A DNA stretch of 64,000 nucleotides from Alphaproteobacteria bacterium (GCA_965227515.1 CBDDFZ010000001.1:1673600-1737599), one strand, 5' to 3'. Positions 13,497-39,133 are shown, counted from the stretch's first letter. The notes: generated from the sequence alone by a model not told the origin. A program made the numbers and translations.

Positions 13497-13675
13497 CGTC
13501 GCCCTCGCCCTTGTGGCGAGGGCCCATGCAAGTGCGGGACTCCTACTGTCCGGGGTTTGTTCGAAGTCGATGCAGCAATGCCCGCGGGGCAATTGCCACG
13601 CCGTTCGGCGTCAGCCACCTAATACGTTGGCGTATTGGACGAGAATGGGTCCTCGCCACAAGGGCGAGGACGACG
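13497..13675. mobile_element. MITE-like element, family B copy 1 (179 bp, 31-bp terminal inverted repeats, each arm itself a hairpin CGCCCTCGCCCTTGTGGCGAGGGC)
   Basis: Left end CGTCGCCCTCGCCCTTGTGGCGAGGGCCCAT; right end is its reverse complement with two substitutions. No coding capacity. Related copies at 20159..20338 and 38958..39133. Confidence 0.7.
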
Positions 13676-13714
13676 AGAGGGAACGTCGGCGGCTCGGCCT
13701 ACGCGAAGAACGAG

Positions 13715-14440
13715 CTAATCGAACAACTGGTCGATGTCGTCCTGCGAGATGCCCTCGGCGCCGGTCGACGGGCCGCTGAGCGCGACATCGTCGTCCATCG
13801 AGCCGTCGTCCAGCGTCACCGGCATCGCCTCCAGCTCGCCGGTGCCCCAAACGTCGGCCATCCGGTTCAGCCGCTCTTCGATGTACTTGATGACCTCGAC
13901 GACCTTGCGGGTCCGCTGCCCGGTGATGTCCTGGAAGTTCGACGCTTCGTAGATCGAGGTGATCGCGTCGCTCATCTTGTCGGTGCAGTTCGCGATGAAC
14001 TGGTCGTCGGAGTTGGCGTCCCGCACCTGACCGATCAGGTCTTCCAGCGTCTCCGCCATCGCCAGGATGGAGGACGTCGCGTCCTCGGTCTGCTCGACGA
14101 TCAGGTCCATCTGCCGGCTGGCCCGCGCAAATTCGTCGTTGGGCGAGTTCGGGTGGCGCAGGGCGGCGATCTCTTCCTTCGTGGTCTTGATGCGATCCTG
14201 CATGTCGAAGACGTCGCGCACCAGCCGGTCTTCGATCTCTTCCAGCTTCGGCAGCGCATTGACCTTCACGTCCAGGGCCTTCAGCGACTCCTGGATTTCG
14301 GCGATCGCCTTCGCGGCGTCCTCGCTCAAGCCAGCGGGGCCATCCTGGTTGGCGGGCGGGCCCAATAGACCGCCCGGCCGCCCGTTCTGTGGCTTCCTGC
14401 GCTCGATGGTGAAAACCTTGCGGCCGGCGGCTGCGTTCAT
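13715..14440 (-). CDS. cheZ: Chemotaxis phosphatase CheZ
   Basis: Catalytic motif 'NFQDITGQ' (the CheZ FQDLTGQ active-site glutamine motif) and acidic C-terminal 'QDDIDQLFD' CheA-binding tail. Start refined to ATG 14440 with AAGGA RBS. Confidence 0.8.
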   Translation of the reverse strand: MNAAAGRKVFTIERRKPQNGRPGGLLGPPANQDGPAGLSEDAAKAIAEIQESLKALDVKVNALPKLEEIEDRLVRDVFDMQDRIKTTKEEIAALRHPNSPNDEFARASRQMDLIVEQTEDATSSILAMAETLEDLIGQVRDANSDDQFIANCTDKMSDAITSIYEASNFQDITGQRTRKVVEVIKYIEERLNRMADVWGTGELEAMPVTLDDGSMDDDVALSGPSTGAEGISQDDIDQLFD

Positions 14441-14564
14441 CGCGTATGTCCTTGCCAAATACGAACGTCGGTGCGCGCGCTACATGCGGGCGCACAAGTC
14501 AGCTCGTAGAATGCCAGAGCGCGGTGAAGCTTCCGTAAATTGAACGTTCCGGGCAGGACACAGC

Positions 14565-16382
14565 TTAACGCCCGGCGGCGTATCCCTGGGAAAACCTGGG
14601 GTTTGCGCCGGCGCGCAGCACGCCGTCGTCGCAGGCCACCGCGCTGATCCGGCCCAGCGACCAGTCCTCTTCCACGGTCACGCCGTGGCCGCGCCGTCTG
14701 AGATCGGCCACGGTCGCGGCATCGAACCGGCCCTCGACGGAGAGCTGATTGACCATCGGCTGGCGCGGATAGAACGACGACGAGAAGTGCTTCACGTCGA
14801 ACATCGGGGTGTCGATGGAGGCCTGGATGCCCATGCCATGGTGCAGCCAGCGCAGAAAGAAGGTCAGCGACCACTGGTCCTGCTGGTCGCCGCCGGGGGT
14901 GCCGAAGGCCAGGTGACCCTTGCCATCGCGCAGCGCCATGCTGGGCGTCAGCGTGGTGCGCGGGCGGCGGCCCGGCGCCAGCACGGTAGTGGCTCGCTCA
15001 TCGAGCCAGAACATCTGTGCGCGCGTGCCCAGGCAGAAGCCGAGCTCCGGAATGGTGGGCGAGCTTTGCAGCCAGCCGCCGCTGGGGGTGGCCGAGACCA
15101 TGTTGCCGTCGCGGTCGACGACATCCAGGTGGCAGGTGTCGCCCATCGCGCGGTCCCTGACCGCGTCGCGCGCCGCATCGTTGTTCGCGACGTTGGCGAA
15201 GGCGCGGGTCGGCTCGTTGGCGGCGGCCATCATGTCGCCGGTCAGCGCCGCCGGGTCCAGCATCGGCAGGTAGGGGGTCCGTCCGCCGGGCGCGCCGGGG
15301 CGATAGGCTTCCGACGCACTGTCCACCGCCACGTCGGCGCGCCGCGCCGCGGCGTAGCTGTCGCTCAACAGGTCATCCATGGGGACGTCGGCGAAATCCG
15401 GGTCGGCGTACCAGGCATCGCGGTCGGCGAAGGCGAGCTTGGCGCATTCCGCGACCGTGTGCACGAAGTCGGCGCCGACCGGGTCCATCGCCGCGAGGTC
15501 GTACTCCTTCAGCAGTGCCAGTTGCTGCAGGAACACCGGCCCCTGGCTCCAGGGACCGGGCTTGCAGATGGTGAGCCCGCCATAGTCGTAGGTCAGCGGC
15601 GCCTCGACAGGCGCCGACCATTTCGCCATGTCGTCGCCGGTCAGCACCCCGGCGTTGCGCTGGCCGGAACCGTCCATGTAGGCGTCGCGGCAGAAGCGGT
15701 CGATCGCATCGGCGACGAAGCCGCGATAGAACGCGTCGCGCGCGGCCGAAATATGCGCATGGCGGTCGCCGCCGGCCGCCTCGGCGGTCTCGACGATGCG
15801 GGTGTAGGTGGCCGCCAGCTGCGGATTGCGGAACAGCCGGACCAGCGAGGGCGGATTGCCGCCGGGCAGGTAGAGTTCCGCCGACCCCGGCCATTCGTCG
15901 CGGAACAGGTCGGCCACCGACGCGATGGCGCCCAGAATGCCCGGCACCAGCGGATAGCCGTCGGCGGCGTAACCGATGGCCGGCGCCATCACCTCGCGCG
16001 GCGTCATGGTGCCGTATTCGGCCAGCATGGTCATCCAGGCGTCGAACGCGCCCGGCACGCAGGCGGCCAGCAGGCCGTCGCCGGGGATGATGCCGATCCC
16101 CTGGGCGCGGTAGTGTTCCAGTGTGGCGCCGGCCGGGGTGACCCCCTGGCCGCAGATCACGTCGGTCTCGCCCGACACGGCGCGGTGCGCGATGATCGGC
16201 AGGTCGCCGCCGGGGCCGTTCAGGTGCGGCTCCACCACTTGCAGCACGAAGCCGGCTGCCACCGCCGCATCGAACGCGTTGCCGCCCTTCTCAAGCGTCG
16301 CCATGCCGACCGCGGTGGCGAGCCAGTGGGTGGACGCCACCATGCCGAAGGTGCCGGTCAGTTCCGGTCGAGTGGTGAACAT
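14565..16382 (-). CDS. ggt: Gamma-glutamyltransferase
   Basis: Ntn-hydrolase GGT family ('GMVASTHWLATAVGMATLEKGGNAFDAAVAAG'). Start refined to ATG 16382 (MFTTRPEL) with GGAGG RBS; 147 codons of upstream ORF-track extension are rejected. Confidence 0.85.
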   Translation of the reverse strand: MFTTRPELTGTFGMVASTHWLATAVGMATLEKGGNAFDAAVAAGFVLQVVEPHLNGPGGDLPIIAHRAVSGETDVICGQGVTPAGATLEHYRAQGIGIIPGDGLLAACVPGAFDAWMTMLAEYGTMTPREVMAPAIGYAADGYPLVPGILGAIASVADLFRDEWPGSAELYLPGGNPPSLVRLFRNPQLAATYTRIVETAEAAGGDRHAHISAARDAFYRGFVADAIDRFCRDAYMDGSGQRNAGVLTGDDMAKWSAPVEAPLTYDYGGLTICKPGPWSQGPVFLQQLALLKEYDLAAMDPVGADFVHTVAECAKLAFADRDAWYADPDFADVPMDDLLSDSYAAARRADVAVDSASEAYRPGAPGGRTPYLPMLDPAALTGDMMAAANEPTRAFANVANNDAARDAVRDRAMGDTCHLDVVDRDGNMVSATPSGGWLQSSPTIPELGFCLGTRAQMFWLDERATTVLAPGRRPRTTLTPSMALRDGKGHLAFGTPGGDQQDQWSLTFFLRWLHHGMGIQASIDTPMFDVKHFSSSFYPRQPMVNQLSVEGRFDAATVADLRRRGHGVTVEEDWSLGRISAVACDDGVLRAGANPRFSQGYAAGR

Positions 16383-16641
16383 GGGCGGGCCTCCGGTTGC
16401 GATGCCCCCATCGCGATATCGGTGGGAGGCGGGTTGGGGGTTGCAGCATACAGCAACCCGGGCCCCTTGCGGACCTTGCGGCAGGCAGATATCACAGGCG
16501 CCCGAAGGAACATATGCGTGAAGCACATGCGCACCGAAAAGCACGCCGACACCTGCCTGTGTTCCGCGCGATGACGCGGCTCCATTACGCGACAACGCGA
16601 CCAGCCACCCAGACAACGCCCACGCGACTGCGACGCTGACC

Positions 16642-17514
16642 ATGAAATCGTTCGACTTCGGCAAGGTCCTGACGGCCAGCCTGAAATTCACCTTCGTCGA
16701 GTGGCGCGCCCTGATCGCCTTTGCGCTGATCCCGTACATTCTGCAGATCGCGGCCCTGGTCGGCCTCAGCCTGGTCACCAGCAGCGCGACGCAGGAATTC
16801 ATGGTGCAGCCGGGCGCCACCTACGAGATGAGCGGCTTCGTCATCACCAACACCGATACCGGCGAGCAGTTCGACTTCGGGCCCCTGGTCACCGATATGC
16901 TGCTGTTCGGGCTGACCATGCTGCTGGTGCTGCCGGTGCTGGCGGTGCCGTTCAAGACCGCCTGGATACGTTATGTCGTGCTCGGCCCGACCGAACAGCC
17001 GGTGCGGCTGACGTTCCTGTTCGGCCCGCGCGAGTTCCGCATGCTCGGCTACACGATCCTGATGTGGCTGGCCACCATCGGCATCATGCTGGGCAGCAGC
17101 ATCGCCGGGGCCGTCGTCGGCATGGTGGCCGGGCCGTTCGGCGCCATGCTGGGCATGTTCGGCGTCGGCTTCCTGGGGATCTGGGTGCTGGCCAGGCTCT
17201 ATTTCGTGTTCCCCGCGATCGCGCTCGATCGACCGACCAACCTCAGCGTGGCCTGGGCGCAGTCGGCAAAACAGGGCATGAAGATCATCGGCATCACTGC
17301 GGTGGTCAGCCTGATCTTCATTCCGGTCGCCTTCCTGCTGGTCACCATTGTCCCGTCCGATTTCATCCTGGTGGGGCAAACGACACAGACGCTGGTGGTC
17401 ATGTTCATGGACGGCGCGCTGTGGGCCTGCCTGGGGCTCGCCTACCGCGACACCACGGCCGGCGGCCCGGCTATCGCTGCATCACCGCCGCCGACCGGCA
17501 ACCCGTTCCGCTAG
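16642..17514 (+). CDS. Polytopic membrane protein (GP-PDE-membrane-domain-like / DUF)
   Basis: Six or more predicted TM helices; stop overlaps the start of the downstream phosphotransferase gene. Confidence 0.6.
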   Translation: MKSFDFGKVLTASLKFTFVEWRALIAFALIPYILQIAALVGLSLVTSSATQEFMVQPGATYEMSGFVITNTDTGEQFDFGPLVTDMLLFGLTMLLVLPVLAVPFKTAWIRYVVLGPTEQPVRLTFLFGPREFRMLGYTILMWLATIGIMLGSSIAGAVVGMVAGPFGAMLGMFGVGFLGIWVLARLYFVFPAIALDRPTNLSVAWAQSAKQGMKIIGITAVVSLIFIPVAFLLVTIVPSDFILVGQTTQTLVVMFMDGALWACLGLAYRDTTAGGPAIAASPPPTGNPFR

Positions 17515-17520
17515 GCCGCC

Positions 17521-18591
17521 GTGACCGTTTTGCCGGCGGACGAGGCCGCGCGGCTGCTGGCGGCGATTGCGCCCCATCTGCCCGACACGGCATCCAGTTC
17601 CGGCGCGCTCGATGCCGAGGGATTGGTGGCGGTGCCGGACTACGGCGCCGGGCATCGCCATGTGGTGCTCGGCGAGACGGGGCTGCTGGCACGGATTCCG
17701 CGCCGGGTGCCGGAGGGGTCCGACCCGGCAGCACACCTGGCCTACGAGGCAGCTTGTTTCGCCCGCGCGCAGGCGAGCGGTGCGACCCCGCGCTGTCATG
17801 GCGTGGTGCCGCCGGGCCCGGACCTGCCCATGGGCGCGTTGCTGGTGCAGCGGATCGAGGGCGCGGTGCCGCGATTGCCGGGCGACCTGCCGGCGATTGC
17901 GCGCGCGCTGGCCGCGCTGCACGGGCTCGCCCTGCCGCGGCCGGACGACCGCCCGCCGCTGCCGGAGAAGACCGACCCGGTTGCCGGCACCGTCGCCCTG
18001 ATCGCCCGCCAGGCCGGTGCGCTGGAGGCGGCCGGCATCGACCCGGCGAGCGTGGCGCTGATCCGCGAGGAATGCGCCGCCGCCGCGCGGCTGCCGGAAG
18101 CCTTCGCGGGCCGGGCACCGCCCATCGTCCTCGCAGGGGTCGACACCCATCCGGGCAATTTCCTGATCGACGGTGCGGGCCATGCCTGGTTCGTCGACCT
18201 GGAGCGCGTCGCCTACGACGCCGGTGCCATAGACATCTGTCACGTGACCTTGCCGACCTCCACCGGCTGGGACATGCGGGTCGCCACCACGGTCGATGCC
18301 GACGCGGTCGGCGTGTTCGAGGCAGCGTACCTCGCGGCGCTGCCAGCCGACCTGGCGGCGGCGACCCGGCCGTGGCTGGGCCGGCTGCGCCGGCTGACCT
18401 GGCTGCGCTCGCTGACGTGGTTCGCCCAGTGGCGGTCACGATGGCGGTCACGCCAGCGTTCCAGCGGCAACGCAACGGCTGCCCAGGCTCCGGACGAAAA
18501 AATTGTTGCCCACATGGCTGCACACGTGGACGCGATGCTGAGCGCTTCCCATATAGAGCGCATGCGCGACGCCCTGCCGACGTTCGCTTGA
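17521..18591 (+). CDS. Phosphotransferase enzyme family protein (APH/choline-kinase-like)
   Basis: Brenner motif 'DTHPGNFLIDGAGHAWFVDLE' (catalytic HxDxxxxN and DLE); GTG start overlapping upstream stop. Confidence 0.75.
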   Translation: MTVLPADEAARLLAAIAPHLPDTASSSGALDAEGLVAVPDYGAGHRHVVLGETGLLARIPRRVPEGSDPAAHLAYEAACFARAQASGATPRCHGVVPPGPDLPMGALLVQRIEGAVPRLPGDLPAIARALAALHGLALPRPDDRPPLPEKTDPVAGTVALIARQAGALEAAGIDPASVALIREECAAAARLPEAFAGRAPPIVLAGVDTHPGNFLIDGAGHAWFVDLERVAYDAGAIDICHVTLPTSTGWDMRVATTVDADAVGVFEAAYLAALPADLAAATRPWLGRLRRLTWLRSLTWFAQWRSRWRSRQRSSGNATAAQAPDEKIVAHMAAHVDAMLSASHIERMRDALPTFA

Positions 18592-18607
18592 CGCTCAGGC
18601 TTTAATT

Positions 18608-18700
18608 CTGCGCCGGCCCTCTCCCCCACCCGGCCACCCGCTAAGCATACTGTCCCAGGGGACCATTGGGGGTGGCCGGGTGGGGGAGAGGGCTGGTGCC
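18608..18700. repeat. REP-like palindromic element, family A copy 2
   Basis: Arms identical to copy 1 (CTGCGCCGGCCCTCTCCCCCACCCGGCCACC ... GGTGGCCGGGTGGGGGAGAGGGCTGGTGCCGACTT); the loop shares 'ATACTGTC' with copy 1. Confidence 0.85.
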
Positions 18701-18969
18701 GACTTTGGCGACTGCGCCCAAAGATCAAGGGCGCAGTCTGCTCGATTGGGCCGCGAATCGGGGCGCACTTCTCCAACACAAACGAATCGGCCAATTCGCG
18801 GAACGTTCCGCGATTATGGCCAGATATTGTGAAATATGGCGCGATTTGGGCAGCGACTCGACACGCGAATCGGACACCCTCCGAGTCGCCTCGAGTCGCG
18901 AATCGGCGGCCGATACAACACTGTGTCTATATTCTTGAAACGTTCGCAGAACAAGGCTATATCTGGGCC

Positions 18970-20106
18970 ATGGTTCGGACACACGCAGCGGGGGCATTGA
19001 GGGCGGACAAGGGCCCGGCCATGCGCAAGGGCCGGGGCGCGCTGAGCAACCGCGACGGGAGGTTCGAGGCCTATCGCAGCGAGGCGTTCCACGATGGCTG
19101 GGACCGCGCGCCGCCGGGCGACGGCGAACCCGACCTGGACGATCCGGCGCTGCGCACCGAGGTGCTGTCCGATGCGTCGCGCAGCATCATCGCCACCAAC
19201 CAGTCGCCGGACGTGCCGTTCGATCGCTCGATCAATCCCTATCGCGGCTGCGAGCATGGCTGCGTCTATTGTTTCGCGCGGCCGACCCATGCCTATCTCG
19301 GCCTGTCGCCGGGGCTCGATTTCGAGACCCGCATTTTCGCCAAGCACGACGCGGCGGGGCTGTTGCGTGCCGCACTGGCCAAGCGCGGCTATCGCCCGGC
19401 ACCGATCGCCATCGGCGCCAACACCGATCCCTACCAGCCGGTGGAGCGGCAGCTCGAGATCACCCGCTCGGTGATCCAGGTGCTGGCTGAAACCCGGCAT
19501 CCGTTCGGCATCGTTACTAAGTCGAACCTGGTACTGCGCGACCTGGACCTTCTGGCGCCGGCGGCGGAGCAACGCCTGGTCTCGGTCGCGGTGTCGGTGA
19601 CCACGCTCGACCGCGATCTCGCCCGTCGCATGGAGCCGCGCGCACCGACGCCGGGCCGCCGGCTGGCCGCCATAGAGGGATTGGCCAAGGCCGGGGTGCC
19701 GGTCTCCGTGCTGGCGGCGCCGATGATCCCGACCCTCAACGACCAGGAACTGGAAGCCATCGTCACCGCGGCGCGCGATGCCGGGGCGACCGACGCGGGC
19801 TATGTGCTGTTGCGGGTGCCGCTGGAGATCAAGGACCTGGTCGCCGAGTGGCTGGACCACCACGCGCCCGGCCGCGCCAAGCGGGTGTTCAGCCACCTGC
19901 AACAGGCGCATGACGGCAAGTCCTATGACGCGCGCTACTTCCACCGCATGCGCGGCAGCGGCGCCTACGCTGAACTCCTGAAGTCGCGGATGGAACGCCT
20001 GCGCCGGTCGCTCGGCCTGGGCGAGCGCCGCTGGACCCTGGAGACGAAACACTTCGTCAAGCCGGCCGCACCGCCTGCCGACGACCGCCAGCTCTCGCTG
20101 TTCTAG
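18970..20106 (+). CDS. Radical SAM protein, PA0069/SplB-like family
   Basis: 'RGCEHGCVYCFARP' CxxxCxxC-type radical SAM cluster motif in a family resembling SplB/PA0069 DNA-repair-like radical SAM proteins. Start uncertain (18970 or 19021). Confidence 0.7.
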   Translation: MVRTHAAGALRADKGPAMRKGRGALSNRDGRFEAYRSEAFHDGWDRAPPGDGEPDLDDPALRTEVLSDASRSIIATNQSPDVPFDRSINPYRGCEHGCVYCFARPTHAYLGLSPGLDFETRIFAKHDAAGLLRAALAKRGYRPAPIAIGANTDPYQPVERQLEITRSVIQVLAETRHPFGIVTKSNLVLRDLDLLAPAAEQRLVSVAVSVTTLDRDLARRMEPRAPTPGRRLAAIEGLAKAGVPVSVLAAPMIPTLNDQELEAIVTAARDAGATDAGYVLLRVPLEIKDLVAEWLDHHAPGRAKRVFSHLQQAHDGKSYDARYFHRMRGSGAYAELLKSRMERLRRSLGLGERRWTLETKHFVKPAAPPADDRQLSLF

Positions 20107-20158
20107 CGGGTGTCGCGCACGCGCTGGGCGCGTGGACCCCACCGCAACTAGCAATTAT

Positions 20159-20338
20159 TCGTCGCTCTCGCCCTTGTGGCGAGGGTCCATGCGAATGCAA
20201 TGCTCTATACTTGGGATGTTTGCTGTTTGCTGGAGCGGCAAGGGCTGAGGGACCGCCGCCATGCCGTTCAGCGCAAACCACTTAACCTACTGGAACATAG
20301 GACAAAAATGGATCCTCGGGACAAGCCCGAGGATGACG
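20159..20338. mobile_element. MITE-like element, family B copy 2 (180 bp)
   Basis: Left TIR TCGTCGCTCTCGCCCTTGTGGCGAGGGTCCAT. Right TIR ATGGATCCTCGGGACAAGCCCGAGGATGACG carries compensatory changes that preserve the hairpin. Its interior shares 'CGCCGTTC(A/G)GCG...CCAC(C/T)TAA' with copy 1. Confidence 0.7.
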
Positions 20339-20505
20339 GTGGGGTGATGGTGATTATGCACAGCCGCGTGCCGCGATCATTCAAAGAGGGCGGTATCCAA
20401 CCGAAACCTGGGGGGGGAATCTACCCCATATGGGCAATCCGGCAGGCTGCTTACGTCATCGGGCAACGAACCGCCGCACGGTGCGGGGTTCGCTTGCCAA
20501 AGGAG

Positions 20506-20964
20506 ATGACGACGATGTTGACCGCCTCGATTTCGAAGATTGCCGGTGCCGCCGCCCTTGCCATGACCGTGGCCCTTGGGGGCTGCATCACCCCGGCGGC
20601 CGGTGCCGGCAACCCGCTGGCTTACGGCCCGGTGCAGCCGCAGCTTCCCACCTTCACCGTGACCACCCACACCGGCAGCGCGGAGCAGGTGCAGACCAGC
20701 TTCACCCCCGGACTCGCCCAGCCCGGTGCGGTGCGGGTGTGCCTGAACAACCAGCGCCCCGGCCAGAGGTCCATCGACCTCAACCTGTCGGGCGTGAACC
20801 CGTTGAACGCCAACGGCCGCAACCAGCAGTCGTGCGCCAGCGTCGGCGCGCATGAAGTGGTCAACCTGCTGGCCATGGCTGGCAACCAGCCGGCCCACAT
20901 CTCGCCGGGCACCGTCAACCTGGCGCAGTACGACGGCGGCCTGCTGACCTTTATCTGGAGATAA
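20506..20964 (+). CDS. Lipoprotein of unknown function
   Basis: Signal peptide ending in lipobox 'LGGC'; AGGAG RBS. Alternative ATG at 20515. Confidence 0.6.
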   Translation: MTTMLTASISKIAGAAALAMTVALGGCITPAAGAGNPLAYGPVQPQLPTFTVTTHTGSAEQVQTSFTPGLAQPGAVRVCLNNQRPGQRSIDLNLSGVNPLNANGRNQQSCASVGAHEVVNLLAMAGNQPAHISPGTVNLAQYDGGLLTFIWR

Positions 20965-21090
20965 CGGCATCTTGCGCAGCGGCCCGGCCCCGGATCTCCT
21001 GGGCGCCGGGGCGCCGCGGGAATTTGAACCGCGGCGCGGTTGGGTTATGGAGGGAGGGTCATGCGCCGCACCCCGATCGATCTGGACTTA

Positions 21091-21130
21091 GAGCGTGTTC
21101 AGTGTGATCGCGATTACATTGAACACGCTC
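21091..21130. terminator. Perfect 14-bp-stem hairpin (GAGCGTGTTCAGTG...CATTGAACACGCTC) directly abutting the response-regulator stop codon; no U-tract
   Basis: Inverted repeat read directly from sequence; positioned between convergent genes; lacks a poly-T so likely a factor-dependent or bidirectional stop. Confidence 0.4.
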
Positions 21131-30750: not shown

Positions 30751-30760
30751 GGCCATGCGG

Positions 30761-31750
30761 TTAGCGGTTATCGAACAACTGCTCGACCAGGTATTCGTAG
30801 TTCTGCGCATTGTCGAGCGCGTCGTCCGGGTTGGTGCGGGCCAGCATCTCCATCTCGGAGATCGCATAGACCTCTTCGCCATGGTGGTTGGTGTAGCAAG
30901 CCTCAAGGCGCGGGGTCATGTGCGCCAGCTCGTGCACCACGGTGCCCATCTGGCTGTCCCACCCGCCGACCAGGGCGGCCTGGAAGAAGGCGGCGCCGAA
31001 CGTCAGCTCGCCGCGGCCCTGCATGCCGCACCAGGTGTAGGCGAACAGCGGGTTGTTGGGCTCGCACTTCGCGACGATCGGGTCGGCACCGGCCGACAGG
31101 CGATCCTCGATGTACTTCAGGTTCTGCGCCACCTCGAACCGGCTGGTCTCGTCGCCGAACCAGCGCTCGACCACATCGTCCTCGTAGGTGCCGATGGTCA
31201 GGCCCGACAGGCGGTCGCCGGTCTCGGCCAGCGCTTGCAGCGCCATCGCGACGGCCTGCTCGATGTCCTTGCGTTCCTCGGCGGAGCAGCCTTCGAACTC
31301 CAGCGCCACGTGCTCGTAGTCGAACGCGGCCGACACGGCCGCCGGGCCGGTCGCGACCGGAACGACGTCACCCTGGCCGAAGCCACCGCCATTGCCCTGG
31401 CCGTCCGAGCCACCGACTGCGACGAAGCCGTCGTCGCCGTTCTCGGCCACCACCGGCTGGTTGTTGCCCACCGGGGTGAAGCCAACGATCTCGGGCGCGC
31501 CGCCGCCATTGCCGACTGGCACGAACGCGTCGTTGCCGAAACCCGGCTGGCCGGCGTTCTCGACGGCCGGGCCAACGGTGTTGATCACGTTGCCATTGCC
31601 GTCGATCACGTTGACGATGTTCTGCGCCATCGCCGGCACGACGCCGGCCAGGATGGTGCCTGCGATCACGGCCGCACCGATGGAGGTGCGCTTGGCGCGG
31701 CCCATGGCCGGCGCGCGATGCTCGGTTGCATTCTTGGTCTGGTTGGTCAT
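30761..31750 (-). CDS. Secreted zinc metalloprotease, aspzincin (M35/Lys-specific endopeptidase)-like
   Basis: Signal peptide, Gly/Asn-rich low-complexity linker, 'HELAHM' HExxH motif and downstream 'DNAQNYEY' (Asp third ligand plus Tyr, as in aspzincins). Start ATG 31750 with AAGGTGG RBS. Confidence 0.55.
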   Translation of the reverse strand: MTNQTKNATEHRAPAMGRAKRTSIGAAVIAGTILAGVVPAMAQNIVNVIDGNGNVINTVGPAVENAGQPGFGNDAFVPVGNGGGAPEIVGFTPVGNNQPVVAENGDDGFVAVGGSDGQGNGGGFGQGDVVPVATGPAAVSAAFDYEHVALEFEGCSAEERKDIEQAVAMALQALAETGDRLSGLTIGTYEDDVVERWFGDETSRFEVAQNLKYIEDRLSAGADPIVAKCEPNNPLFAYTWCGMQGRGELTFGAAFFQAALVGGWDSQMGTVVHELAHMTPRLEACYTNHHGEEVYAISEMEMLARTNPDDALDNAQNYEYLVEQLFDNR

Positions 31751-31897
31751 GGTTGCCACCTTGCGCTTGAGTGTTGGTGCAGCGCCCTTTGGCGCCGCTG
31801 TTGAGACCGAGATGGCGACGGTCGCGGGCCGGACCTGTGAACTGGGTCACCGGTGCGGGTGGAAATGCGTTAGGGTGCCGCAAAACGGCGTGCGGGT

Positions 31898-33409
31898 TTG
31901 GCGATGAGTCGGATATTTGCGTGGGGTGCCCGGACGGCGCGGGCCAGAGTGGGCGTGCCAGTGGCGACGCTCGCGATGGCGATGCTCGCTTTGGCGGCGG
32001 TCTCGTGGTCGGGCCAGGCGAACGGCGACTGGATGCCGGAAGCTCGGCCGGAGCTGCGCGTGCCGCAGAGTGCGGCCGAGATGCAGCTCTCGTTCGCGCC
32101 GCTGGTGCAGTACGCCGCGCCGGCGGTGGTCAACATCCTGACCATCGTCAATGTGGCGGGCAGCGACCTGGGGCCGTCGCGGCTGTTCAACGACCCGTTC
32201 TTCCGGGAGTTCTTCCAGGGCTTCCCAGGCGGCCCGCCGGGCCCGTCCATGCCGCGTCAGGAGCTGTCGTCGCTGGGCTCCGGCGTCATTCTCACGCCCG
32301 ACGGTGTGATGGTGACCAACTATCACGTCATCGAGCGGGCGGACGCCATCCGGGTCGTGCTGGCGGACCGCCGCGAATTCGAGGCCGAGATTCTGGGCGT
32401 CGACCGGGCAACCGATCTGGCGGTGCTGAGGATCGGCATCGAGGCGGAGTCGCTGCAGTATCTGGAGCTGGGCGACAGCGATGAGATTCTGGTCGGCGAC
32501 CTGGTGCTTGCCATCGGCAACCCGTTCGGCGTCGGCCAGACCGTCACCAGCGGCATCGTCTCCGCGCTGGCCCGCACCGAGATCGGCGTCTCCGACTACA
32601 GCTTCTTCATCCAGACCGATGCCCCCATCAACCCCGGCAACTCCGGCGGCGCGCTGGTCGGCATGGATGGGCGGGTGATCGGCATCAACACCGCCATCTA
32701 TTCCGAAAGCGGCGGCTCCCACGGCATCGGGTTCGCGGTGCCGGCCAACATGGTGCGCACTGTCGTCGGCGCGGTGCTGGAGCATGGGCGCGTGGTGCGG
32801 CCGTGGCTGGGTGCGGAAATGGAGGAAGTCACGACGGAGCTCGCCGTCGTGCTCGGCCTCGCGCGGCCCTATGGCGCGCTGCTGGTGGACATCGCGCCCA
32901 ACGGTCCGGCGATCGACGCCGGCCTACGGCCGGGCGACGTGGTGCTGGCGATCGAGGGCCACGACCTGGAGAACACCAATGCGCTCAGGTTCCGCGTCGG
33001 CACCTATCCGGCCGGCACCGAGGTGGAACTGACCGTGCTGCGCGACCAGGAGGTGATCGCGGTCCCGGTCACGCTGCAGGACCCGCCCAGCGTGGCGGCG
33101 ATGGCCCAGGCACTGCGCCTGGCCGGCCCGCATCCGCTGAACGGTGCCTCGGTGACCGATATGACCGCCGACCTGGCGGCGGAGTTCGCGCTGGGCGACC
33201 TGCGCATCGGCGCCTTCGTCACGGCGGTGGCGGACGGCACCGCCAGCCGGCAGATCGGCCTGCGTCCGGGCGACATCGTGGTCGGCATCAATGGCGTCGA
33301 GGTGGCCAATGTCGAGGCGCTGGAAGCGATGCTGGCCCGCCCGCAGCCGCTGTGGCGGGTCTCGGTGCTGCGCAATGGCGTGATCCTCAGCGTCACCGTG
33401 CGCGGCTAG
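31898..33409 (+). CDS. degP: DegP/HtrA-family periplasmic serine endoprotease with two PDZ domains
   Basis: Catalytic triad context 'HVIE', 'DLAVL', 'GNSGGAL'; two PDZ domains. Confidence 0.85.
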   Translation: MAMSRIFAWGARTARARVGVPVATLAMAMLALAAVSWSGQANGDWMPEARPELRVPQSAAEMQLSFAPLVQYAAPAVVNILTIVNVAGSDLGPSRLFNDPFFREFFQGFPGGPPGPSMPRQELSSLGSGVILTPDGVMVTNYHVIERADAIRVVLADRREFEAEILGVDRATDLAVLRIGIEAESLQYLELGDSDEILVGDLVLAIGNPFGVGQTVTSGIVSALARTEIGVSDYSFFIQTDAPINPGNSGGALVGMDGRVIGINTAIYSESGGSHGIGFAVPANMVRTVVGAVLEHGRVVRPWLGAEMEEVTTELAVVLGLARPYGALLVDIAPNGPAIDAGLRPGDVVLAIEGHDLENTNALRFRVGTYPAGTEVELTVLRDQEVIAVPVTLQDPPSVAAMAQALRLAGPHPLNGASVTDMTADLAAEFALGDLRIGAFVTAVADGTASRQIGLRPGDIVVGINGVEVANVEALEAMLARPQPLWRVSVLRNGVILSVTVRG

Positions 33410-33427
33410 GGCGCTCGGACCCACGCA

Positions 33428-34804
33428 ATGGCGACGCTGTTCGAAGCCCAGGCGCCACGGCCGCTGGCCGACCGGCTGCGGCCGGAGACCCTGGCCGAGG
33501 TAGTCGGCCAGGAGCATGTGCTGGGGCCGGAGTCGCCGCTGGGCCGCATGGTGGCGGGCAAGCGCCTCAGCTCGCTGGTGCTGTGGGGGCCGCCGGGCTG
33601 TGGCAAGACCACGATCGCGCGCCTGCTGGCCGATGCCATCGGCATCGCGTTCGAGCCGTTGTCGGCCGTGTTCTCCGGCGTCGCCGACCTGCGCAAGGTG
33701 TTCGAGCGCGCCCGCGCCCGGCGCGACGGCGGCGAGGGCACGCTGCTGTTCGTCGACGAGATCCACCGCTTCAACCGCGCCCAGCAGGACGGGTTCCTGC
33801 CCTATGTGGAGGACGGCACCGTCACCCTGGTTGGCGCCACCACGGAAAACCCGTCGTTCGAGCTGAACGCGGCGCTGTTGTCGCGGCTGCAGGTGTTCGT
33901 GCTGCGCCGGCTGGACGATGCGGCGCTGGAAACCCTGCTCGCCCGCGCCGAGGAGATCGAGGGCCGACCGCTGCCGGTGGCCGACGAGGCGCGCCCGGCG
34001 CTGCGCGCGATGGCCGACGGCGACGGCCGCACCCTCCTCAACATGGCGGAGGAGCTGTTTGCGCTGCCGCCCGGCCAGAAGCCATTGACCGCCGCCGACC
34101 TGCCGAGCGTGGTGCAGCGCCGCGCGCCGGTCTACGACAAGGCGCAGGAGAGCCACTACAACCTGATCTCCGCCCTGCACAAGAGCCTGCGCGGCTCCGA
34201 CGTCGATGCCGCGCTCTACTGGTGCGCGCGGATGCTGGATGGCGGCGAGGACCCGCGCTACATCGCCCGCCGGCTGCTGCGCTTCGCCTATGAGGACATC
34301 GGCATGGCCGACCCGCAGGCCGCGGTGCAGGCGCTGAACGCCTGGGAGACCTATGAGCGCCTGGGCACGCCAGAGGGCGAGCTCGCCATCGCGCAGTCGG
34401 TGATCTATCTGGCGACGGCGCCGAAATCGAACGCGGCCTACAAGGCGGAGAAGGCGGCGCGGGCCAGCGCGCGCGAAACCGGCTCGCTGATGCCGCCGAT
34501 GCACATTCTGAACGCGCCGACCCGGCTGATGAAGGACATCGGCTACGGCAAGGGCTATGCCTACGACCACGACCAGGAGGATGCATTCTCCGGCCAGAAC
34601 TACTTCCCCGACGGCATGGCGCGGCGGGAGCTCTACCGGCCGGTATCGCGCGGGTTCGAGCGCGAGATCGAGAAACGGCTGGCCTATTGGGCGCGCAAGC
34701 GGGCGGAACGCGCCGCCGCCGAGGGCGATGGCCCCTCCGGTGCCTCTGCCGATGCCCCTGGCGCCGCACCTGCTGGCAGCCCCGACCAGGACGCCGCAGA
34801 GTGA
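33428..34804 (+). CDS. rarA: Replication-associated recombination protein A (AAA+ ATPase)
   Basis: Walker A 'GPPGCGKTT', Walker B 'LFVDEIHRFN', MgsA C-terminal domain. Confidence 0.9.
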   Translation: MATLFEAQAPRPLADRLRPETLAEVVGQEHVLGPESPLGRMVAGKRLSSLVLWGPPGCGKTTIARLLADAIGIAFEPLSAVFSGVADLRKVFERARARRDGGEGTLLFVDEIHRFNRAQQDGFLPYVEDGTVTLVGATTENPSFELNAALLSRLQVFVLRRLDDAALETLLARAEEIEGRPLPVADEARPALRAMADGDGRTLLNMAEELFALPPGQKPLTAADLPSVVQRRAPVYDKAQESHYNLISALHKSLRGSDVDAALYWCARMLDGGEDPRYIARRLLRFAYEDIGMADPQAAVQALNAWETYERLGTPEGELAIAQSVIYLATAPKSNAAYKAEKAARASARETGSLMPPMHILNAPTRLMKDIGYGKGYAYDHDQEDAFSGQNYFPDGMARRELYRPVSRGFEREIEKRLAYWARKRAERAAAEGDGPSGASADAPGAAPAGSPDQDAAE

Positions 34805-34826
34805 GAGCGGCGGGCTCAGCCGCCTT

Positions 34827-35049
34827 GCCCCTCTCCCATTTCGGGAGAGGGAGGGGCCCGCGAGCCGAAGGCTCGTGGGAGGGTGAGGGCCGGCACGATC
34901 GATCGCGATCACTCAGCATTTCGGCGCGCGCCAAAGATATCGACTGGCGTCAAGGCGACTGCGCCGGCTCCGCGGCTTCGCCACGGCCCTCACCCTCCCG
35001 GCGCTGGACGCGCCGGGTCCCTCCCTCTCCCGAAATGGGAGAGGGGATC
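34827..35049. repeat. Large nested palindromic element (~220 bp) related to family A REPs
   Basis: Terminal hairpins CCCTCTCCCATTTCGGGAGAGGG and CCCTCTCCCGAAATGGGAGAGGG. Inner inverted pair TGGGAGGGTGAGGGCCG / CGGCCCTCACCCTCCC flanks a lower-GC core. Intergenic between rarA and crcB. Confidence 0.8.
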
Positions 35050-35087
35050 AAAGCGCGCCGCATTGATGCGCGGGCGAGTGAACTCGT

Positions 35088-35474
35088 ATGTCCGGACTGA
35101 CCATCCTGGCGGTGGCGGCGGGGGGGGCGGTCGGCGCGGTGGCGCGCTATCTGGTGGCGACCGGGGCGACCCACCTGTTCGGCCTTGGCTTCCCGTACGG
35201 CACCCTGATCGTCAATGTCGTCGGCTCGTTCGTCCTCGGCTGCCTTGCCGAGGCGATGGCGCTGGTCTGGACGCCGTCGCGCGAGCTGCGCGCTTTCCTG
35301 GTGGTCGGCATGCTGGGCGCGTTCACCACCTTCTCGACCTTCTCGCTGGACAGCGTCGCCCTGTTCGAGCGCCGCGAATACGTGTCGGCGGGCCTCTACG
35401 TGGTGATCTCGGTGGTGGTGTCCATCGCTGCCCTGGTCGCCGGCATGCGGCTGATGCGCGTGGTGCTGCCATGA
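35088..35474 (+). CDS. crcB: Fluoride exporter CrcB/FluC
   Basis: 128-aa four-TM protein with CrcB family features. Confidence 0.85.
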   Translation: MSGLTILAVAAGGAVGAVARYLVATGATHLFGLGFPYGTLIVNVVGSFVLGCLAEAMALVWTPSRELRAFLVVGMLGAFTTFSTFSLDSVALFERREYVSAGLYVVISVVVSIAALVAGMRLMRVVLP

Positions 35475-36436
35475 GCGGCGTGGAACTCTTGGACGTTGCG
35501 GCCGACGACGACGACGTGCGGCTGGACCGGTGGTGCAAGCGCCACCTTCCCGGTGTGCCCCATGGCCGGCTGGAGAAGCTGTTGCGCACCGGCCAGATCA
35601 GGGTCGACGGCAAGCGCGCCAAGGGCAACCTGCGCCTACGCGCCGGCCAGCAGGTGCGCCTGCCGCCCGTACCCACGGCCAAGACGGACGGGGCGCCTGC
35701 GCCGCAACGCCAGGAGGTGACGCCCGATATGGTCCGCGAGGTGCGCGCGATGGTGCGCCATCGCGACGACGCCATCATCGTGATCGACAAGCCGGCCGGG
35801 TTGGCGGTGCAGGGCGGCAGCGGCACCCACCGGCACCTGGACGGCATGTTGGACGCGCTGAAGTTCGACGCGCCCGAGCGGCCGCGGCTGGTCCACCGGC
35901 TGGACAAGGACACCAGCGGCGTTCTGGTGCTGGCGCGCTCGGCCAGCGTCGCCCGCGCGCTCGCGCGCACCTTCCAGACCCGCGATGTCGACAAGACCTA
36001 TTGGGCGCTGGTCGCCGGCATGCCCCCGTCGGATGAAGGCACCATCAACATGGCGTTGGGAAAGCAGCCGGGCAGCGGCGGCGAGAAGATGGGGCCGGAC
36101 GCGCCGGACGCCAAGCCGGCGGTCACGGAGTTCCGGGTGATCGACCGGGCCGGCGCGCGGGTTGCCTGGCTGGAGCTGAAGCCGGTGACCGGCCGCACCC
36201 ACCAGCTGCGCGCGCACTGCGCCTTCACCGGCATGCCAATCCTGGGCGACGGCAAGTATGGTGGCGCGGACGCATTTGTCGGTCCGGAACAGGTGGCGCG
36301 CCGGCTGCACCTGCACGCGCGCGCCATTGCGCTGCCGCACCCCGCCGGCCACCGGTTGCGTGTGACCGCGCCGCTGCCCGCGCACATGAAGGCCAGCTTC
36401 GACTTTTTCGAATTCGACCCGAAGGACGCCGAATGA
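35471..36436 (+). CDS. rluC: RluA-family 23S rRNA pseudouridine synthase (RluC/D-like)
   Basis: S4 domain N-terminus and catalytic 'HRLDKDTSGVL' motif. ATG overlaps the crcB stop (ATGA); the 517-aa ORF-track version is an upstream extension through the repeat and is rejected. Confidence 0.85.
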   Translation: MSGVELLDVAADDDDVRLDRWCKRHLPGVPHGRLEKLLRTGQIRVDGKRAKGNLRLRAGQQVRLPPVPTAKTDGAPAPQRQEVTPDMVREVRAMVRHRDDAIIVIDKPAGLAVQGGSGTHRHLDGMLDALKFDAPERPRLVHRLDKDTSGVLVLARSASVARALARTFQTRDVDKTYWALVAGMPPSDEGTINMALGKQPGSGGEKMGPDAPDAKPAVTEFRVIDRAGARVAWLELKPVTGRTHQLRAHCAFTGMPILGDGKYGGADAFVGPEQVARRLHLHARAIALPHPAGHRLRVTAPLPAHMKASFDFFEFDPKDAE

Positions 36437-36445
36437 CCGAGAACA

Positions 36446-37123
36446 ATGAGCGATAGACTGCGCCTGGCGCTGTTCGACTGCGACGGCACGCTGATCGACA
36501 GCCAGCGGACCATCCTGACGTCGATGGCGGCAGCTTTCGACAGTGTCGGCCATCCACCGCCGGACCTCGCCGCGATCAGGACCGTCATCGGGCTGTCGCT
36601 GGCCGAGGCCATCGTGCAACTGCTGGGCGATGCCGCCGCGCCGGGCACGGTTTCGGCGGCCGAAGACGCCTATTACGCGGCGTTCGACCGTTGTCACGCC
36701 GACCCCAACATGATCGAGCCGATGTACGACGGCATGGCCGACGTGCTGGACTGGCTGGATGATGGCGGGTGGTTGCTGGGGGTCGCGACAGGCAAGACCC
36801 ACGCCGGTTTGCTGGCGACCCTGCGGCGGCATGGGCTGGTCGAGCGGTTCCAAACCTTGCAGACCGCCGACCGGGCGGCGGGCAAGCCGAGCCCCGATAT
36901 GGTCTATCGCGCGACCCGCGATTGCGGCGTCGATCCCGCCGACACCGTGGTCATCGGCGACACCACATTCGACATGATGATGGCGCGTAATGCCGGCGCC
37001 CGGCGCATCGGCGTAAGTTGGGGCTATCACGACGTCGACGACCTGCACGCGGCCGGCGCCGATACCGTCGTGACCTCTTGTGCCGAACTGCCGGAGGCCT
37101 TGGCCGCAGTGCTGGATCGGTAG
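36446..37123 (+). CDS. HAD-family hydrolase (phosphoglycolate-phosphatase-like)
   Basis: Motif I 'LFDCDGTLIDS' and motif IV 'IGDTTFDMMMARNAG'. Confidence 0.8.
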   Translation: MSDRLRLALFDCDGTLIDSQRTILTSMAAAFDSVGHPPPDLAAIRTVIGLSLAEAIVQLLGDAAAPGTVSAAEDAYYAAFDRCHADPNMIEPMYDGMADVLDWLDDGGWLLGVATGKTHAGLLATLRRHGLVERFQTLQTADRAAGKPSPDMVYRATRDCGVDPADTVVIGDTTFDMMMARNAGARRIGVSWGYHDVDDLHAAGADTVVTSCAELPEALAAVLDR

Positions 37124-37127
37124 GGCA

Positions 37128-37829
37128 ATGAAGCGGTTCTACAAGCAGGCCGCCTACGAGACGCGCGACGACGGCCTGGTCATCGCGCTCGACGGCCGCC
37201 CGATCCGCACGCCGGCAGCACGTCCCTTGACGGTGCCGACGCCCGAGATGGCCGATGCCATCGTGGCCGAATGGAACGGCCAGGGCGATGAGGTCGACCT
37301 GAATGCGATGCCGATCACCCGGCTCGCCGGCACCGGCATCGATCTCGTCGCGTCGCGCCGCGACGAAATTCGAGCCGAACTGGTGCGCTACGCAACCACC
37401 GATCTGCTGTGCTATCGCGCCGACACGCCGGAGGCACTGGCCATGCGCCAGGCCGCGCTGTGGCAGCCGGTGCTGGACTGGCTGGACGAACGCCACGGCA
37501 TCGTGCTGTCGATCACCTTCGGGGTGGCGCCCATCGAGCAGGCCCCGGCGGCGCTGGAGGCGCTGGACCGGCTGCTGGTGCCGTGCGGGCCGATGCAGCT
37601 CACCGGGATGCGCACGCTGACCGGCGGTCTTGGCTCGCTGGTGCTGGCGCTGGCGGTCTGGCAGCGTCATGTGGATATCGAGGCGGCCTGGACCGCGTGC
37701 CAGATCGACGAGACGTTCCAGGCCGAGCAATGGGGCGAGGATGCGGAGGCGACGGCGCGCCGCGAAGCTTTGCGCGAGGACGTGCTGACATCGGCGCGGT
37801 TCCTGGAGCTTGCCGGCGATGACGGCTGA
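37128..37829 (+). CDS. ATP12 family F1-ATPase assembly chaperone
   Basis: ATP12/Atp12p family; start ATG 37128 (MKRFYKQ). Confidence 0.7.
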   Translation: MKRFYKQAAYETRDDGLVIALDGRPIRTPAARPLTVPTPEMADAIVAEWNGQGDEVDLNAMPITRLAGTGIDLVASRRDEIRAELVRYATTDLLCYRADTPEALAMRQAALWQPVLDWLDERHGIVLSITFGVAPIEQAPAALEALDRLLVPCGPMQLTGMRTLTGGLGSLVLALAVWQRHVDIEAAWTACQIDETFQAEQWGEDAEATARREALREDVLTSARFLELAGDDG

Positions 37830-38139
37830 GACCGATGCCAGCGGCGGGACAATCGCCCGCCATGTGGTGATCTCCGGGCGGGTGCAGGGTGTCTGGTATC
37901 GCGGCTGGACCGTGGGCGAGGCCACCCGCGCCGGGCTGAAGGGCTGGGTGCGCAACCGACGCGACGGCGCGGTGGAAGCCGTGTTCGTCGGCCCGGCGAC
38001 AGCCGTCGACGCGATGATAGCCGCGTGCCGGAACGGCCCTCCTTCGGCGCGGGTCGACGATGTGGCGGTCAGCGATGCGACGCCGGACATGACCGCCGGC
38101 CTGGCGCCGGATTTCGAGCAGCGGCCCACGGTTAGGTAG
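37819..38139 (+). CDS. acyP: Acylphosphatase
   Basis: 'GRVQGVWYRGWT' and 'GWVRNRRDGAVEAV' acylphosphatase signatures; ATG overlaps the atp12 stop. Confidence 0.8.
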   Translation: MTAETDASGGTIARHVVISGRVQGVWYRGWTVGEATRAGLKGWVRNRRDGAVEAVFVGPATAVDAMIAACRNGPPSARVDDVAVSDATPDMTAGLAPDFEQRPTVR

Positions 38140-38159
38140 TTTCGGCTTGGAGGCATGAG

Positions 38160-38906
38160 ATGAAGAGCATGATGGTTGCGATGCTGCTTGTCGTCGCGGG
38201 CTCCTCGGCGGCGCTCGCCCAGCAGGACCCGCCACCGCCGCCACCGCCGCCGCCGCCGCCAGGCAGCAACGGGCCGGGCGGCGCGCCGCAGGTCCAGACG
38301 GTCGAGACCGCCGGCAGCGTGCAGATCATGGCCGAGGTCTGGGCCGACAACTGGTTCGCCCTCTACGTCAATGGCGCTCACATCGCCACCGACAGCGTGC
38401 CGATCACCACCGAGCGCTCGTTCAATGCCGAGCGCATCGTGTTCCGCGCCGACTATCCGCTGACGCTGGCGTTCCAGGTCATGGACTACCGCGAGAACGA
38501 CACCGGGCTGGAATACATCGGCACCAACCGCCAGCAGATGGGCGACGGCGGCTTCATCGCCCAGTTCACCGACATGGCGACCGGCCGGGCGATCGCGGTG
38601 ACCGACAGCAACTGGCGCTGCCTGGTGACCCATGAGGCGCCGTTGGACACCTCATGCGTCCGCCAGCTCAATCCGGCGCCCGGTGTCGGTGCGTGCACCT
38701 TCTCGGTCACGCCGGAGCCGCCGGGCTGGCAGCAGGCGGGGTTCTACGACAGCGCGTGGCCCCATGCGCGCGAGTACAGCGCCGGCCAGGTCCGCCCGAA
38801 GGACGGCTATGATCACATCGACTGGGCGCCGCAGGCGGCCCTGATCTGGGGCCCGAACCTGGAGACCGACAACACGCTGCTATGCCGGTTGCAGATCGGC
38901 GGTTGA
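38160..38906 (+). CDS. Secreted protein of unknown function with a 12-residue polyproline tract after the signal peptide
   Basis: Signal peptide 'MKSMMVAMLLVVAGSSAALA', then PPPPPPPPPPPP (CCG/CCA-rich repeat 38227..38262), then a W/Y-rich globular domain with three Cys. Confidence 0.6.
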   Translation: MKSMMVAMLLVVAGSSAALAQQDPPPPPPPPPPPGSNGPGGAPQVQTVETAGSVQIMAEVWADNWFALYVNGAHIATDSVPITTERSFNAERIVFRADYPLTLAFQVMDYRENDTGLEYIGTNRQQMGDGGFIAQFTDMATGRAIAVTDSNWRCLVTHEAPLDTSCVRQLNPAPGVGACTFSVTPEPPGWQQAGFYDSAWPHAREYSAGQVRPKDGYDHIDWAPQAALIWGPNLETDNTLLCRLQIGG

Positions 38907-38957
38907 TGCCGCCGTCTGTCGGTATGCGGGTGTCTGACCTATCATTCCACCATCCCT

Positions 38958-39133
38958 CGTCATCCTCGGGCTTGTCCCGAGGATCCATTTATGTCCGTTG
39001 TTCAATGGGTTGAAGGCGATACGCGGTGCAGTAGGCGGTCGATCGTTGCGCTTTGCCCCGCGAGAACCGACCATTTCAGGCCCGTCTCGCGCCCCGCGAT
39101 ACCATGGGTCCTCGCCACAAGGGCGAGGACGAC
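38958..39133. mobile_element. MITE-like element, family B copy 3 (176 bp)
   Basis: Left TIR CGTCATCCTCGGGCTTGTCCCGAGGATCCAT is the exact reverse complement of the right TIR of copy 2; right TIR ATGGGTCCTCGCCACAAGGGCGAGGACGAC matches copy 1. Confidence 0.7.

Follow-up and report, generated by a model that had tools for sequence, protein, structure and literature searches.

CGTC-tagged repetitive extragenic palindromes (REPs) are palindromes that carry an unpaired CGTC (or TGTC/CCTC) at one end, and they are found mainly in Alphaproteobacteria (Di Nocera, De Gregorio, Rocco 2013, BMC Genomics 14:522, PMC3733652). According to that survey, the units have 8-9-bp stems, 4-5-nt loops and a CCA tail, with 9 bp and 5 nt in families CGTC-3 and CGTC-4, and A-T residues are "almost invariably" present at stem positions 1 and 2. 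Most of them form HH (head-to-head, tags outside) dimers, TT (tail-to-tail) dimers being rare and HT (head-to-tail) ones negligible; the HH spacers are conserved and usually 20-100 bp long, and mixed-subtype dimers predominate in CGTC-2 and CGTC-3. These repeats lie downstream of coding regions, between convergent or same-direction open reading frames (ORFs), their copy number differs many-fold between related strains, and no tyrosine transposase gene flanked by CGTC REPs was found in the survey (PMC3733652). In its supplementary tables the CGTC-3 hosts are A. tumefaciens, S. meliloti, R. palustris, S. novella, and O. carboxidovorans, and the peptides encoded by CGTC-3 units (Additional file 3) include VIAGLDPAIH, VIPGLDPGIH, and DGRVKPGHD (PMC3733652). 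The present analysis concerns three ~180-bp, hairpin-ended elements in a 64,000-nucleotide stretch of DNA from an alphaproteobacterium (GCA_965227515.1 CBDDFZ010000001.1:1673600-1737599), hereafter the window, whose genome is 68% GC and has its nearest named protein homologues in Tistlia, Inquilinus, and Kiloniellales.

The three elements are intergenic and occupy positions 13497-13675, 20160-20338, and 38958-39134 (regions read directly), within 1 nt of where an earlier note on this DNA had placed them. Each is very probably an HH dimer of CGTC-tagged REPs with the tags outward, that is, a non-autonomous repeat downstream of genes that resembles a REPIN (REP doublet forming a hairpin). Both ends of each element are made of an inverted 30-nt unit, which reads CGTC, a 9-bp stem, a 5-nt loop, the 9-bp stem again, and CCA. 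The tag is CGTC in five of the six units and TGTC in the sixth (3R), while the CCA tail, the 9-bp stem, and the CTTGT loop are present in all six. The hairpin ends recognized in the earlier note are therefore real, but the stem is of 9 bp rather than the 10 bp then given, as a tenth pair would be C.C. The units and spacers are as follows.

13497..13526, + strand: REP unit 1L, CGTCGCCCTCGCCCTTGTGGCGAGGGCCCA, consisting of CGTC, stem GCCCTCGCC, loop CTTGT, stem GGCGAGGGC, and tail CCA.
13527..13645, + strand: 119-nt non-coding spacer of dimer 1, a homologue of the dimer 2 spacer.
13646..13675, - strand: REP unit 1R, CGTCGTCCTCGCCCTTGTGGCGAGGACCCA, reading on the + strand TGG, GTCCTCGCC, ACAAG, GGCGAGGAC, and GACG.
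20160..20189, + strand: REP unit 2L, CGTCGCTCTCGCCCTTGTGGCGAGGGTCCA, consisting of CGTC, GCTCTCGCC, CTTGT, GGCGAGGGT, and CCA, with two G.T stem pairs.
20190..20308, + strand: spacer of dimer 2, 119 nt.
20309..20338, - strand: REP unit 2R, CGTCATCCTCGGGCTTGTCCCGAGGATCCA, the canonical form, CGTC AT CCTCGGG CTTGT CCCGAGG AT CCA.
38958..38987, + strand: REP unit 3L, CGTCATCCTCGGGCTTGTCCCGAGGATCCA, the same 30 nt as unit 2R.
38988..39104, - strand: 117-nt spacer of dimer 3, a homologue of the dimer 2 spacer once reverse-complemented.
39105..39134, - strand: REP unit 3R, TGTCGTCCTCGCCCTTGTGGCGAGGACCCA, with the variant tag TGTC (GACA on the + strand).

The window elements share with the CGTC-3 REPs the CGTC/TGTC tag, the 9-bp stem and 5-nt loop, the CCA tail, mixed-subtype HH dimers, an intergenic position downstream of ORFs, an alphaproteobacterial host, and the lack of a flanking transposase in the window. 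In addition, the window units encode VILGLVPRIH and DPRDKPEDD, the former with the V-I-x-G-L-x-P-x-I-H pattern of the CGTC-3 peptides. The units thus appear most like family CGTC-3, the choice of CGTC-3 over CGTC-4 resting on the text of the 2013 paper and its supplementary peptides. Their loop, CTTGT, differs from the commoner CTTGA; among units sampled from other genomes, loop position 1 is A in 27% and T in 65%. Other named repeats within the CGTC superfamily, RPE-4 and RPE-6 of Rickettsia and dRS3 of Neisseria, fall in families 1 and 4 (PMC3733652), unlike the window units. RIMEs (Rhizobium-specific intergenic mosaic elements) and Sm-repeats of Sinorhizobium/Rhizobium resemble the window elements as intergenic palindromic mosaic repeats of Alphaproteobacteria, with RIME compared by description only.

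The hairpin core (19 nt, at most three mismatches) occurs four times in the window, where 0.09 occurrences are expected, and none of 100 shuffles equalled that count; a relaxed scan of the window found no units beyond the six. The same arms were recovered by a repeat finder as families D10, D15, I1, I2, I7, and I9. Two stem subtypes can be distinguished, ..CCTCGCC/GGCGAGG.. and ..CCTCGGG/CCCGAGG.., and the differences between them are paired changes on both strands. Copy 1 has the first subtype at both ends and folds as one long hairpin (-109 kcal/mol, z=-7.5), while copies 2 and 3, in which both subtypes are represented once, each form two separate hairpins (z=-3.2 and -2.0, respectively). 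Between the window units, stem pairs 1, 2, 8, and 9 covary (G-C/A-T, C-G/T-A, CC..GG/GG..CC): positions 1-2 are AT..AT in 2R and 3L; 1L, 1R, and 3R keep pairing there, with G-C first and either C-G or T-A second; and in 2L they are a G.T wobble followed by C-G.

The covariation extends far beyond the window. Public collections were scanned with the pattern CCTCGNNNCAAGNNCGAGGNNGAC, in which two stem pairs and one loop base were free and the two outermost stem pairs were also unconstrained, so that stem pairs 1, 2, 8, and 9 could vary in the 246 unique units taken from other genomes. In this sample, Watson-Crick pairing was observed in 68% of units at pair 1 (outermost), 93% at pair 2, 96% at pair 8, and 93% at pair 9 (loop-closing), compared with 61%, 65%, 78%, and 54%, respectively, if the columns were independent. 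Several pair types were found at every free position; at pair 1, 154 of the 246 units have A-T and 49 have G.T, and at pair 2 the counts are 185 for T-A and 42 for C-G. With free stem pairs Watson-Crick above expectation and many pair types, these data are strong and free of bias in showing that selection acts on the hairpin as such and that its pairing is kept by compensatory change. The earlier note had read both compensatory substitution and selection on the hairpin from the window copies; the substitutions are indeed seen between the window units, and the outside units strongly uphold both.

The spacers between the hairpins have a different history from the arms. Spacers 1 and 2 are 62% identical (z=7.7 against shuffles), spacer 2 and the reverse complement of spacer 3 are 60% identical (z=5.2), and spacer 1 and the reverse complement of spacer 3 are 53% identical, which is not significant (z=1.7). 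All three elements align colinearly from end to end after copy 3 is inverted, so that the interior non-coding conservation claimed before for copies 1 and 2 holds and extends to copy 3. The arms are identical at 25-30 of 30 positions within a subtype and at 22-24 of 30 between subtypes. Because the spacers are homologous and the arms conserved, duplication involved the whole dimer and the copies are old; the dimer including its spacer was copied to at least three unlinked sites in the window's genome, after which the arms were held constant while the spacers drifted to 53-62% identity. As had been noticed, the right end of copy 2 matches the left end of copy 3 exactly, over 30 nt, and the similarity runs into the spacer (46 nt at 93%). 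The recent recombination or transposition between the two copies that was suggested on this ground does not hold, because the adjoining spacers are only 60% identical; the identical ends reflect a shared REP subtype and common descent, with no recent exchange.

No homologue of the window spacer was found in the ~335 fetched loci that carry the same hairpins. A metagenome scan with a spacer-plus-arm pattern gave no match, and a looser one gave at least 120 loci, none with a homologous spacer. The spacer is thus lineage-specific, and it is the 30-nt unit, not a 180-bp element, that is conserved across genomes. The repeat class has been known since 2013, and the window copies are fresh instances of it with a lineage-specific spacer.

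The unit is widespread. Matches were obtained in 91 stretches of viral contigs and at least 117 stretches of species-representative genomes, and at least 120 stretches of metagenomes matched a related pattern. Among the matches listed, nearly all named genomes belong to Alphaproteobacteria (Rhizobiales, Caulobacterales, Rhodospirillales, Rhodobacterales), including Rhizobium, Agrobacterium, Shinella, Devosia, Brevundimonas, Caulobacter, Phenylobacterium, Roseibium, Martelella, Dongia, Inquilinus, Acetobacteraceae, and Roseovarius, and the 30-nt unit is therefore conserved across orders of this class. The commonest form, CGTCATCCTCGGGCTTGACCCGAGGATCCA, is present in 226 plasmid records, mainly of Rhizobium and Sinorhizobium. 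When copy 1 was compared with plasmids by BLAST, the arms alone matched, in Rhizobium; one of these matches (L001) is an element of 90 bp whose ends carry the two subtypes. BLAST with a 34-nt query found one place on pSymB, a query too short to be sensitive, as the 2013 paper counts 31 CGTC-3 units there. A literature search by sequence strings of the repeat returned no match. Neighbouring units in the fetched loci are arranged HH in 53 cases, TT in eight, and HT in seven; hairpin cores are separated by 21-168 nt, a distance conserved within lineages only, and single units are commoner than units in dimers (157 vs 102). The window spacers, at 117-119 nt, are at the long end of the spacer range. 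Outside the Alphaproteobacteria, a Terriglobia metagenome-assembled genome (L140) has five pattern matches on one strand within 1.1 kb (3341-4425), which may reflect tandem clustering, a repeat within a coding sequence, or contamination at binning.

Y1/HUH transposases recognize a hairpin and its tag at GTAG REPs and at the ends of IS200/IS605. The REPINs of Pseudomonas and E. coli, built from GTAG REPs and served by RAYT (REP-associated tyrosine transposase, a Y1 HUH enzyme), are like the window dimers in that two inverted REP hairpins and their spacer are copied as one unit, an unpaired tetranucleotide stands at the foot of the hairpin, target-site duplications are absent, and the copies are intergenic. 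They differ in the tag, which in the window is CGTC/TGTC and not GTAG, and in the enzyme, there being no RAYT in the window and none reported to be flanked by CGTC REPs; the window dimers are therefore not members of the REPIN/RAYT system. By analogy, we propose that the dimer would behave like a REPIN, being non-autonomous and spreading as single-stranded DNA, with an enzyme encoded elsewhere recognizing the hairpin and the unpaired tag. Under such spread, structure, tag, and loop would be conserved while the spacer would be free to change, and copies might persist downstream of genes because they would be least harmful there. Transposition of CGTC REPs is thus something we infer from their resemblance to REPINs.

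Variation among Rhizobium plasmids (L212-L217) bears on this proposal. The spacer between the divergent genes pcaQ and pcaD ranges there from 95 bp without a unit (L214, R. ruizarguesonis) to 631 bp (L213, R. etli IE4803), and in alleles of 263-631 bp the number of CGTC dimers, interspersed with other palindromic repeats, is zero, one, or two; the repeats sit beside the pcaD ribosome-binding site AGGAGGAG. The lengths differ through gain or loss of CGTC dimers and of the other palindromes. The region is a mosaic and yields no clean insertion junction, but its variation supports mobility, or at least gain and loss, of CGTC dimers. This is also a rare case of CGTC repeats in a divergent promoter region. 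A REPtron-like arrangement was considered at two other loci (L103 and L170) and rejected: there is no transposase between the REP pairs, and the genes there are ordinary ones (EamA, RidA-like, HlyD-like).

Several points weigh against reading the elements as CGTC REP dimers that spread like REPINs. In four of the six window units, stem positions 1-2 are G-C or G-T/A-C and not A-T as in CGTC-3; among the defining features compared, this is the single one in which agreement is partial, though the bases there mostly still pair. The 119-nt spacer exceeds the usual 20-100 nt. No mobilizing enzyme for CGTC REPs emerged from the 2013 survey (PMC3733652), and none is present among the 50 window ORFs. 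The asymmetry between G.T and A.C is inconsistent between stem positions, and for this reason no call can be made between RNA and DNA, nor on the strand. Finally, L211, the one close relative fetched, is rearranged and offers no clean empty site for any of the window copies. Its radical SAM protein has 84% amino-acid identity to that of the window, but the two are not colinear downstream of this gene: no REP follows it in L211 (11188-11466), whereas the window (20107-20505) has the dimer and a small lipoprotein gene. An apparent minus-strand tRNA gene (from sequence reading only) and then an SDR gene follow the radical SAM gene in L211.

The genes around the three copies, with real genes told apart from spurious ORFs by third-position GC content, are as follows.

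Copy 1: upstream, a DctM TRAP permease gene (+), the element lying 61 nt past its stop; downstream, a CheZ-like gene (-), its stop 39 nt beyond the element; convergent.
Copy 2: upstream, a PA0069-type radical SAM gene (+), the element lying 53 nt past its stop; downstream, a small lipoprotein gene (+) at 20506, 167 nt on; same direction.
Copy 3: upstream, a gene for a PEBP-like secreted protein (+), the element lying 51 nt past its stop; downstream, gene 39308-39847 (+), 173 nt on; same direction.

The elements had been said to adjoin genes for secreted proteins or transporters, which agrees with the DctM TRAP permease, the lipoprotein with an LGGC lipobox, and the PEBP-like protein with a signal peptide; the last has no close orthologue, its best match being 71% identical. 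Nothing suggests a functional link between the elements and these neighbours. Pfam scans of the 50 window ORFs recognized ordinary chromosomal genes, and a transposase, integrase, or HUH protein was not among them. The long ORFs that run through the dimers, 20176-20964 (+), 39002-39865 (-), and 13611-14495 (-), are spurious, with third-position GC of 0.43-0.78 vs 0.83-0.92 in the adjacent real genes; in the first of them the hairpin is translated as ...DPRDKPEDD.... CGTC units thus probably account for some false "hypothetical proteins" in annotated genomes.

A similar preference for gene ends was found in other genomes. Among 288 GC-rich loci, in which genes were called by a heuristic based on third-position GC only, 50 units lie between convergent genes, ~77 between same-direction genes, and six between divergent genes (of ~133), in agreement with the 2013 paper (PMC3733652). 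This bias is compatible either with insertion being tolerated where no promoter is disrupted or with an action in 3' untranslated regions (3' UTRs). REPs of E. coli have been shown to act as barriers to 3' exonucleases or as attenuators, and, by analogy only, the CGTC hairpins, when transcribed into 3' UTRs, would probably act as 3'-exonuclease barriers or weak attenuators.

It is possible, as a tentative alternative, that the hairpins are host RNA elements, selected in the 3' UTR of the upstream gene for stabilizing its mRNA or for terminating or attenuating transcription, and that their copying is incidental. The window copies start 51-61 nt past stop codons, very few units (6 of ~133) lie between divergent genes, and single units between same-direction genes are found 32:13 with the GACG strand as sense (binomial p=0.007), so that the tag-distal end comes first along the sense strand. 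G.T pairs occur in the stems, and units 2R and 3L are followed by T-rich runs with terminator-like scores (CCATTTTTGT after 2R on the - strand, CCATTTATGT after 3L on the + strand). However, T-rich runs follow these two alone among the window units, no family-wide T-run follows the tail in the sampled units, and 3L is the only unit whose terminator-like side faces a gene; a general role as intrinsic terminator was rejected for the first two of these observations. A conserved unpaired tag and loop sequence would also be superfluous for a simple stabilizing hairpin, the orientation bias could equally be explained by strand-specific insertion during replication, and the many-fold variation in copy number between strains argues against a general host function (PMC3733652).

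A further feature of the units lies next to the tag. The 12 nt just outside the tag (+25..+36 after the hairpin core) contain 5-15% C vs 32% in the background and are rich in G/A, frequently with GAGGG, GGAGG, or GGTGG (loci L003-L210 and L218 onward). This tract is present in single units and dimers alike, while the tail side has no bias, and it is shared by the window copies.

13676..13687, + strand: outer flank of unit 1R, AGAGGGAACGTC, purine-rich and C-poor.
20339-20358: equivalent outer tract, beginning GTGGGGTGATGG.
38938-38957, - strand: equivalent outer tract, beginning AGGGATGGTGG.

Both the C-poor tract and the orientation bias of single units seem new, as neither is mentioned in the text of the 2013 article (PMC3733652); they rest on sampled loci and rough gene calls and need confirmation. 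The near-invariant stem, loop, and tag across orders, together with the outer tract and the orientation bias, would fit one trans-acting protein. It is conceivable, though we regard it as rather doubtful, that CGTC units are larger and more polar than described and that a single conserved protein acting in trans would read hairpin, CGTC, and purine tract on one strand, with the window dimers among its substrates. Such a protein may be a domesticated single-strand-specific nuclease or transposase, or an RNA 3'-end factor.

Binding at the DNA level, by contrast with mobility, is an unlikely explanation. In that case the unit would be a site for a host protein (gyrase, a nucleoid protein, a recombinase, or a phage-integration target) and not part of a mobile element. 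REPs of E. coli bind gyrase and REPs serve as targets for insertion sequences (ISs) (PMC3733652), and stem and loop have kept their exact sequence across the orders of Alphaproteobacteria. Nevertheless, copy numbers differ widely among related strains (PMC3733652), and the compensatory changes point to an intramolecular hairpin, either single-stranded or as a cruciform, rather than to recognition of a duplex.

The earlier note had called the elements MITE-like (miniature inverted-repeat transposable element), which stands in so far as they are non-autonomous repeats with inverted ends. That they are classical MITEs, deleted derivatives of a DDE-type IS mobilized via 31-bp terminal inverted repeats and leaving target-site duplications, is highly improbable. 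MITEs derived from DDE insertion sequences are likewise small and non-coding, with terminal inverted repeats and several copies, and the presence/absence polymorphism in Rhizobium would suit them. Yet the flanking target-site duplications that were looked for are lacking: the flanks of the three window copies have no direct repeat in common, and direct repeats of 2-5 nt at the aligned junctions of 51 dimers were not above permutation, one shifted register giving 10 vs a permutation mean of 5.4 and maximum of 12. Neither the window nor the ~335 loci showed an IS with these ends, no transposase is encoded among the 50 window ORFs, and the 2013 survey reported no associated transposase (PMC3733652). 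Half-elements are also abundant, single units outnumbering dimer units in a way that is not expected of a transposon moving from one terminal inverted repeat to the other, and each terminus is itself a hairpin.

A conserved small RNA (sRNA) gene family, named in the earlier note as an alternative, with the ~120-nt interior as product and the hairpins as processing or terminator signals, has very little probability: the interiors of the three copies are homologous and copy 1 has a very stable fold, but that stability comes from arm-to-arm pairing and the folds of copies 2 and 3 are far less exceptional, the spacers are only 53-62% identical between copies with no homologue in the ~335 hairpin-carrying loci outside this genome, no Rfam family was matched at gathering thresholds and only chance-level matches were obtained for copies 1 and 2 at relaxed ones, and no sense-strand promoter-like site is found at the elements, the single 9-of-12 match being on the minus strand across unit 2L. 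In the whole window, only a tRNA at 41184-41267 reaches the Rfam gathering score.

Other repeats were also observed in the window. Two copies of another intergenic palindromic repeat, at 5525-5607 and 18604-18705, have arms of ~34 nt (CTGCGCCGGCCCTCTCCCCCACCCGGCCACCC / GGGTGGCCGGGTGGGGGAGAGGGCCGGTGCCGA) that are 89-91% complementary and 15 or 30 nt apart, and they probably represent a different REP-like family. A third type of hairpin-ended repeat is a ~219-bp element at 34828-35046, between an MgsA-like gene and crcB, with 33-nt terminal inverted repeats that are 97% complementary; each terminal repeat has its own hairpin, CCCTCTCCC-ATTTC-GGGAGAGGG, and a second inverted repeat, GGGAGGGTGAGGGCCG / CGGCCCTCACCCTCCC, is nested within the element. 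The direct repeats with a 27-nt period at 56745-57265 (family D1) are coding, being part of a minus-strand gene (56526-57464) for RTX calcium-binding nonapeptide repeats (HemolysinCabind).

For the organism, these results mean that the window elements can be annotated as CGTC-type REP dimers and should be masked in gene and sRNA prediction. For the family, they concern an abundant alphaproteobacterial group of repeats under strong structural selection, with neither a known mobilizing enzyme nor a demonstrated function. The window alone does not make the question of what mobilizes CGTC REPs more testable; the covariation at free positions, the absence of target-site duplications, the C-poor flank, and the orientation bias, which come from the ~335 sampled loci, narrow the enzyme or function that is possible.

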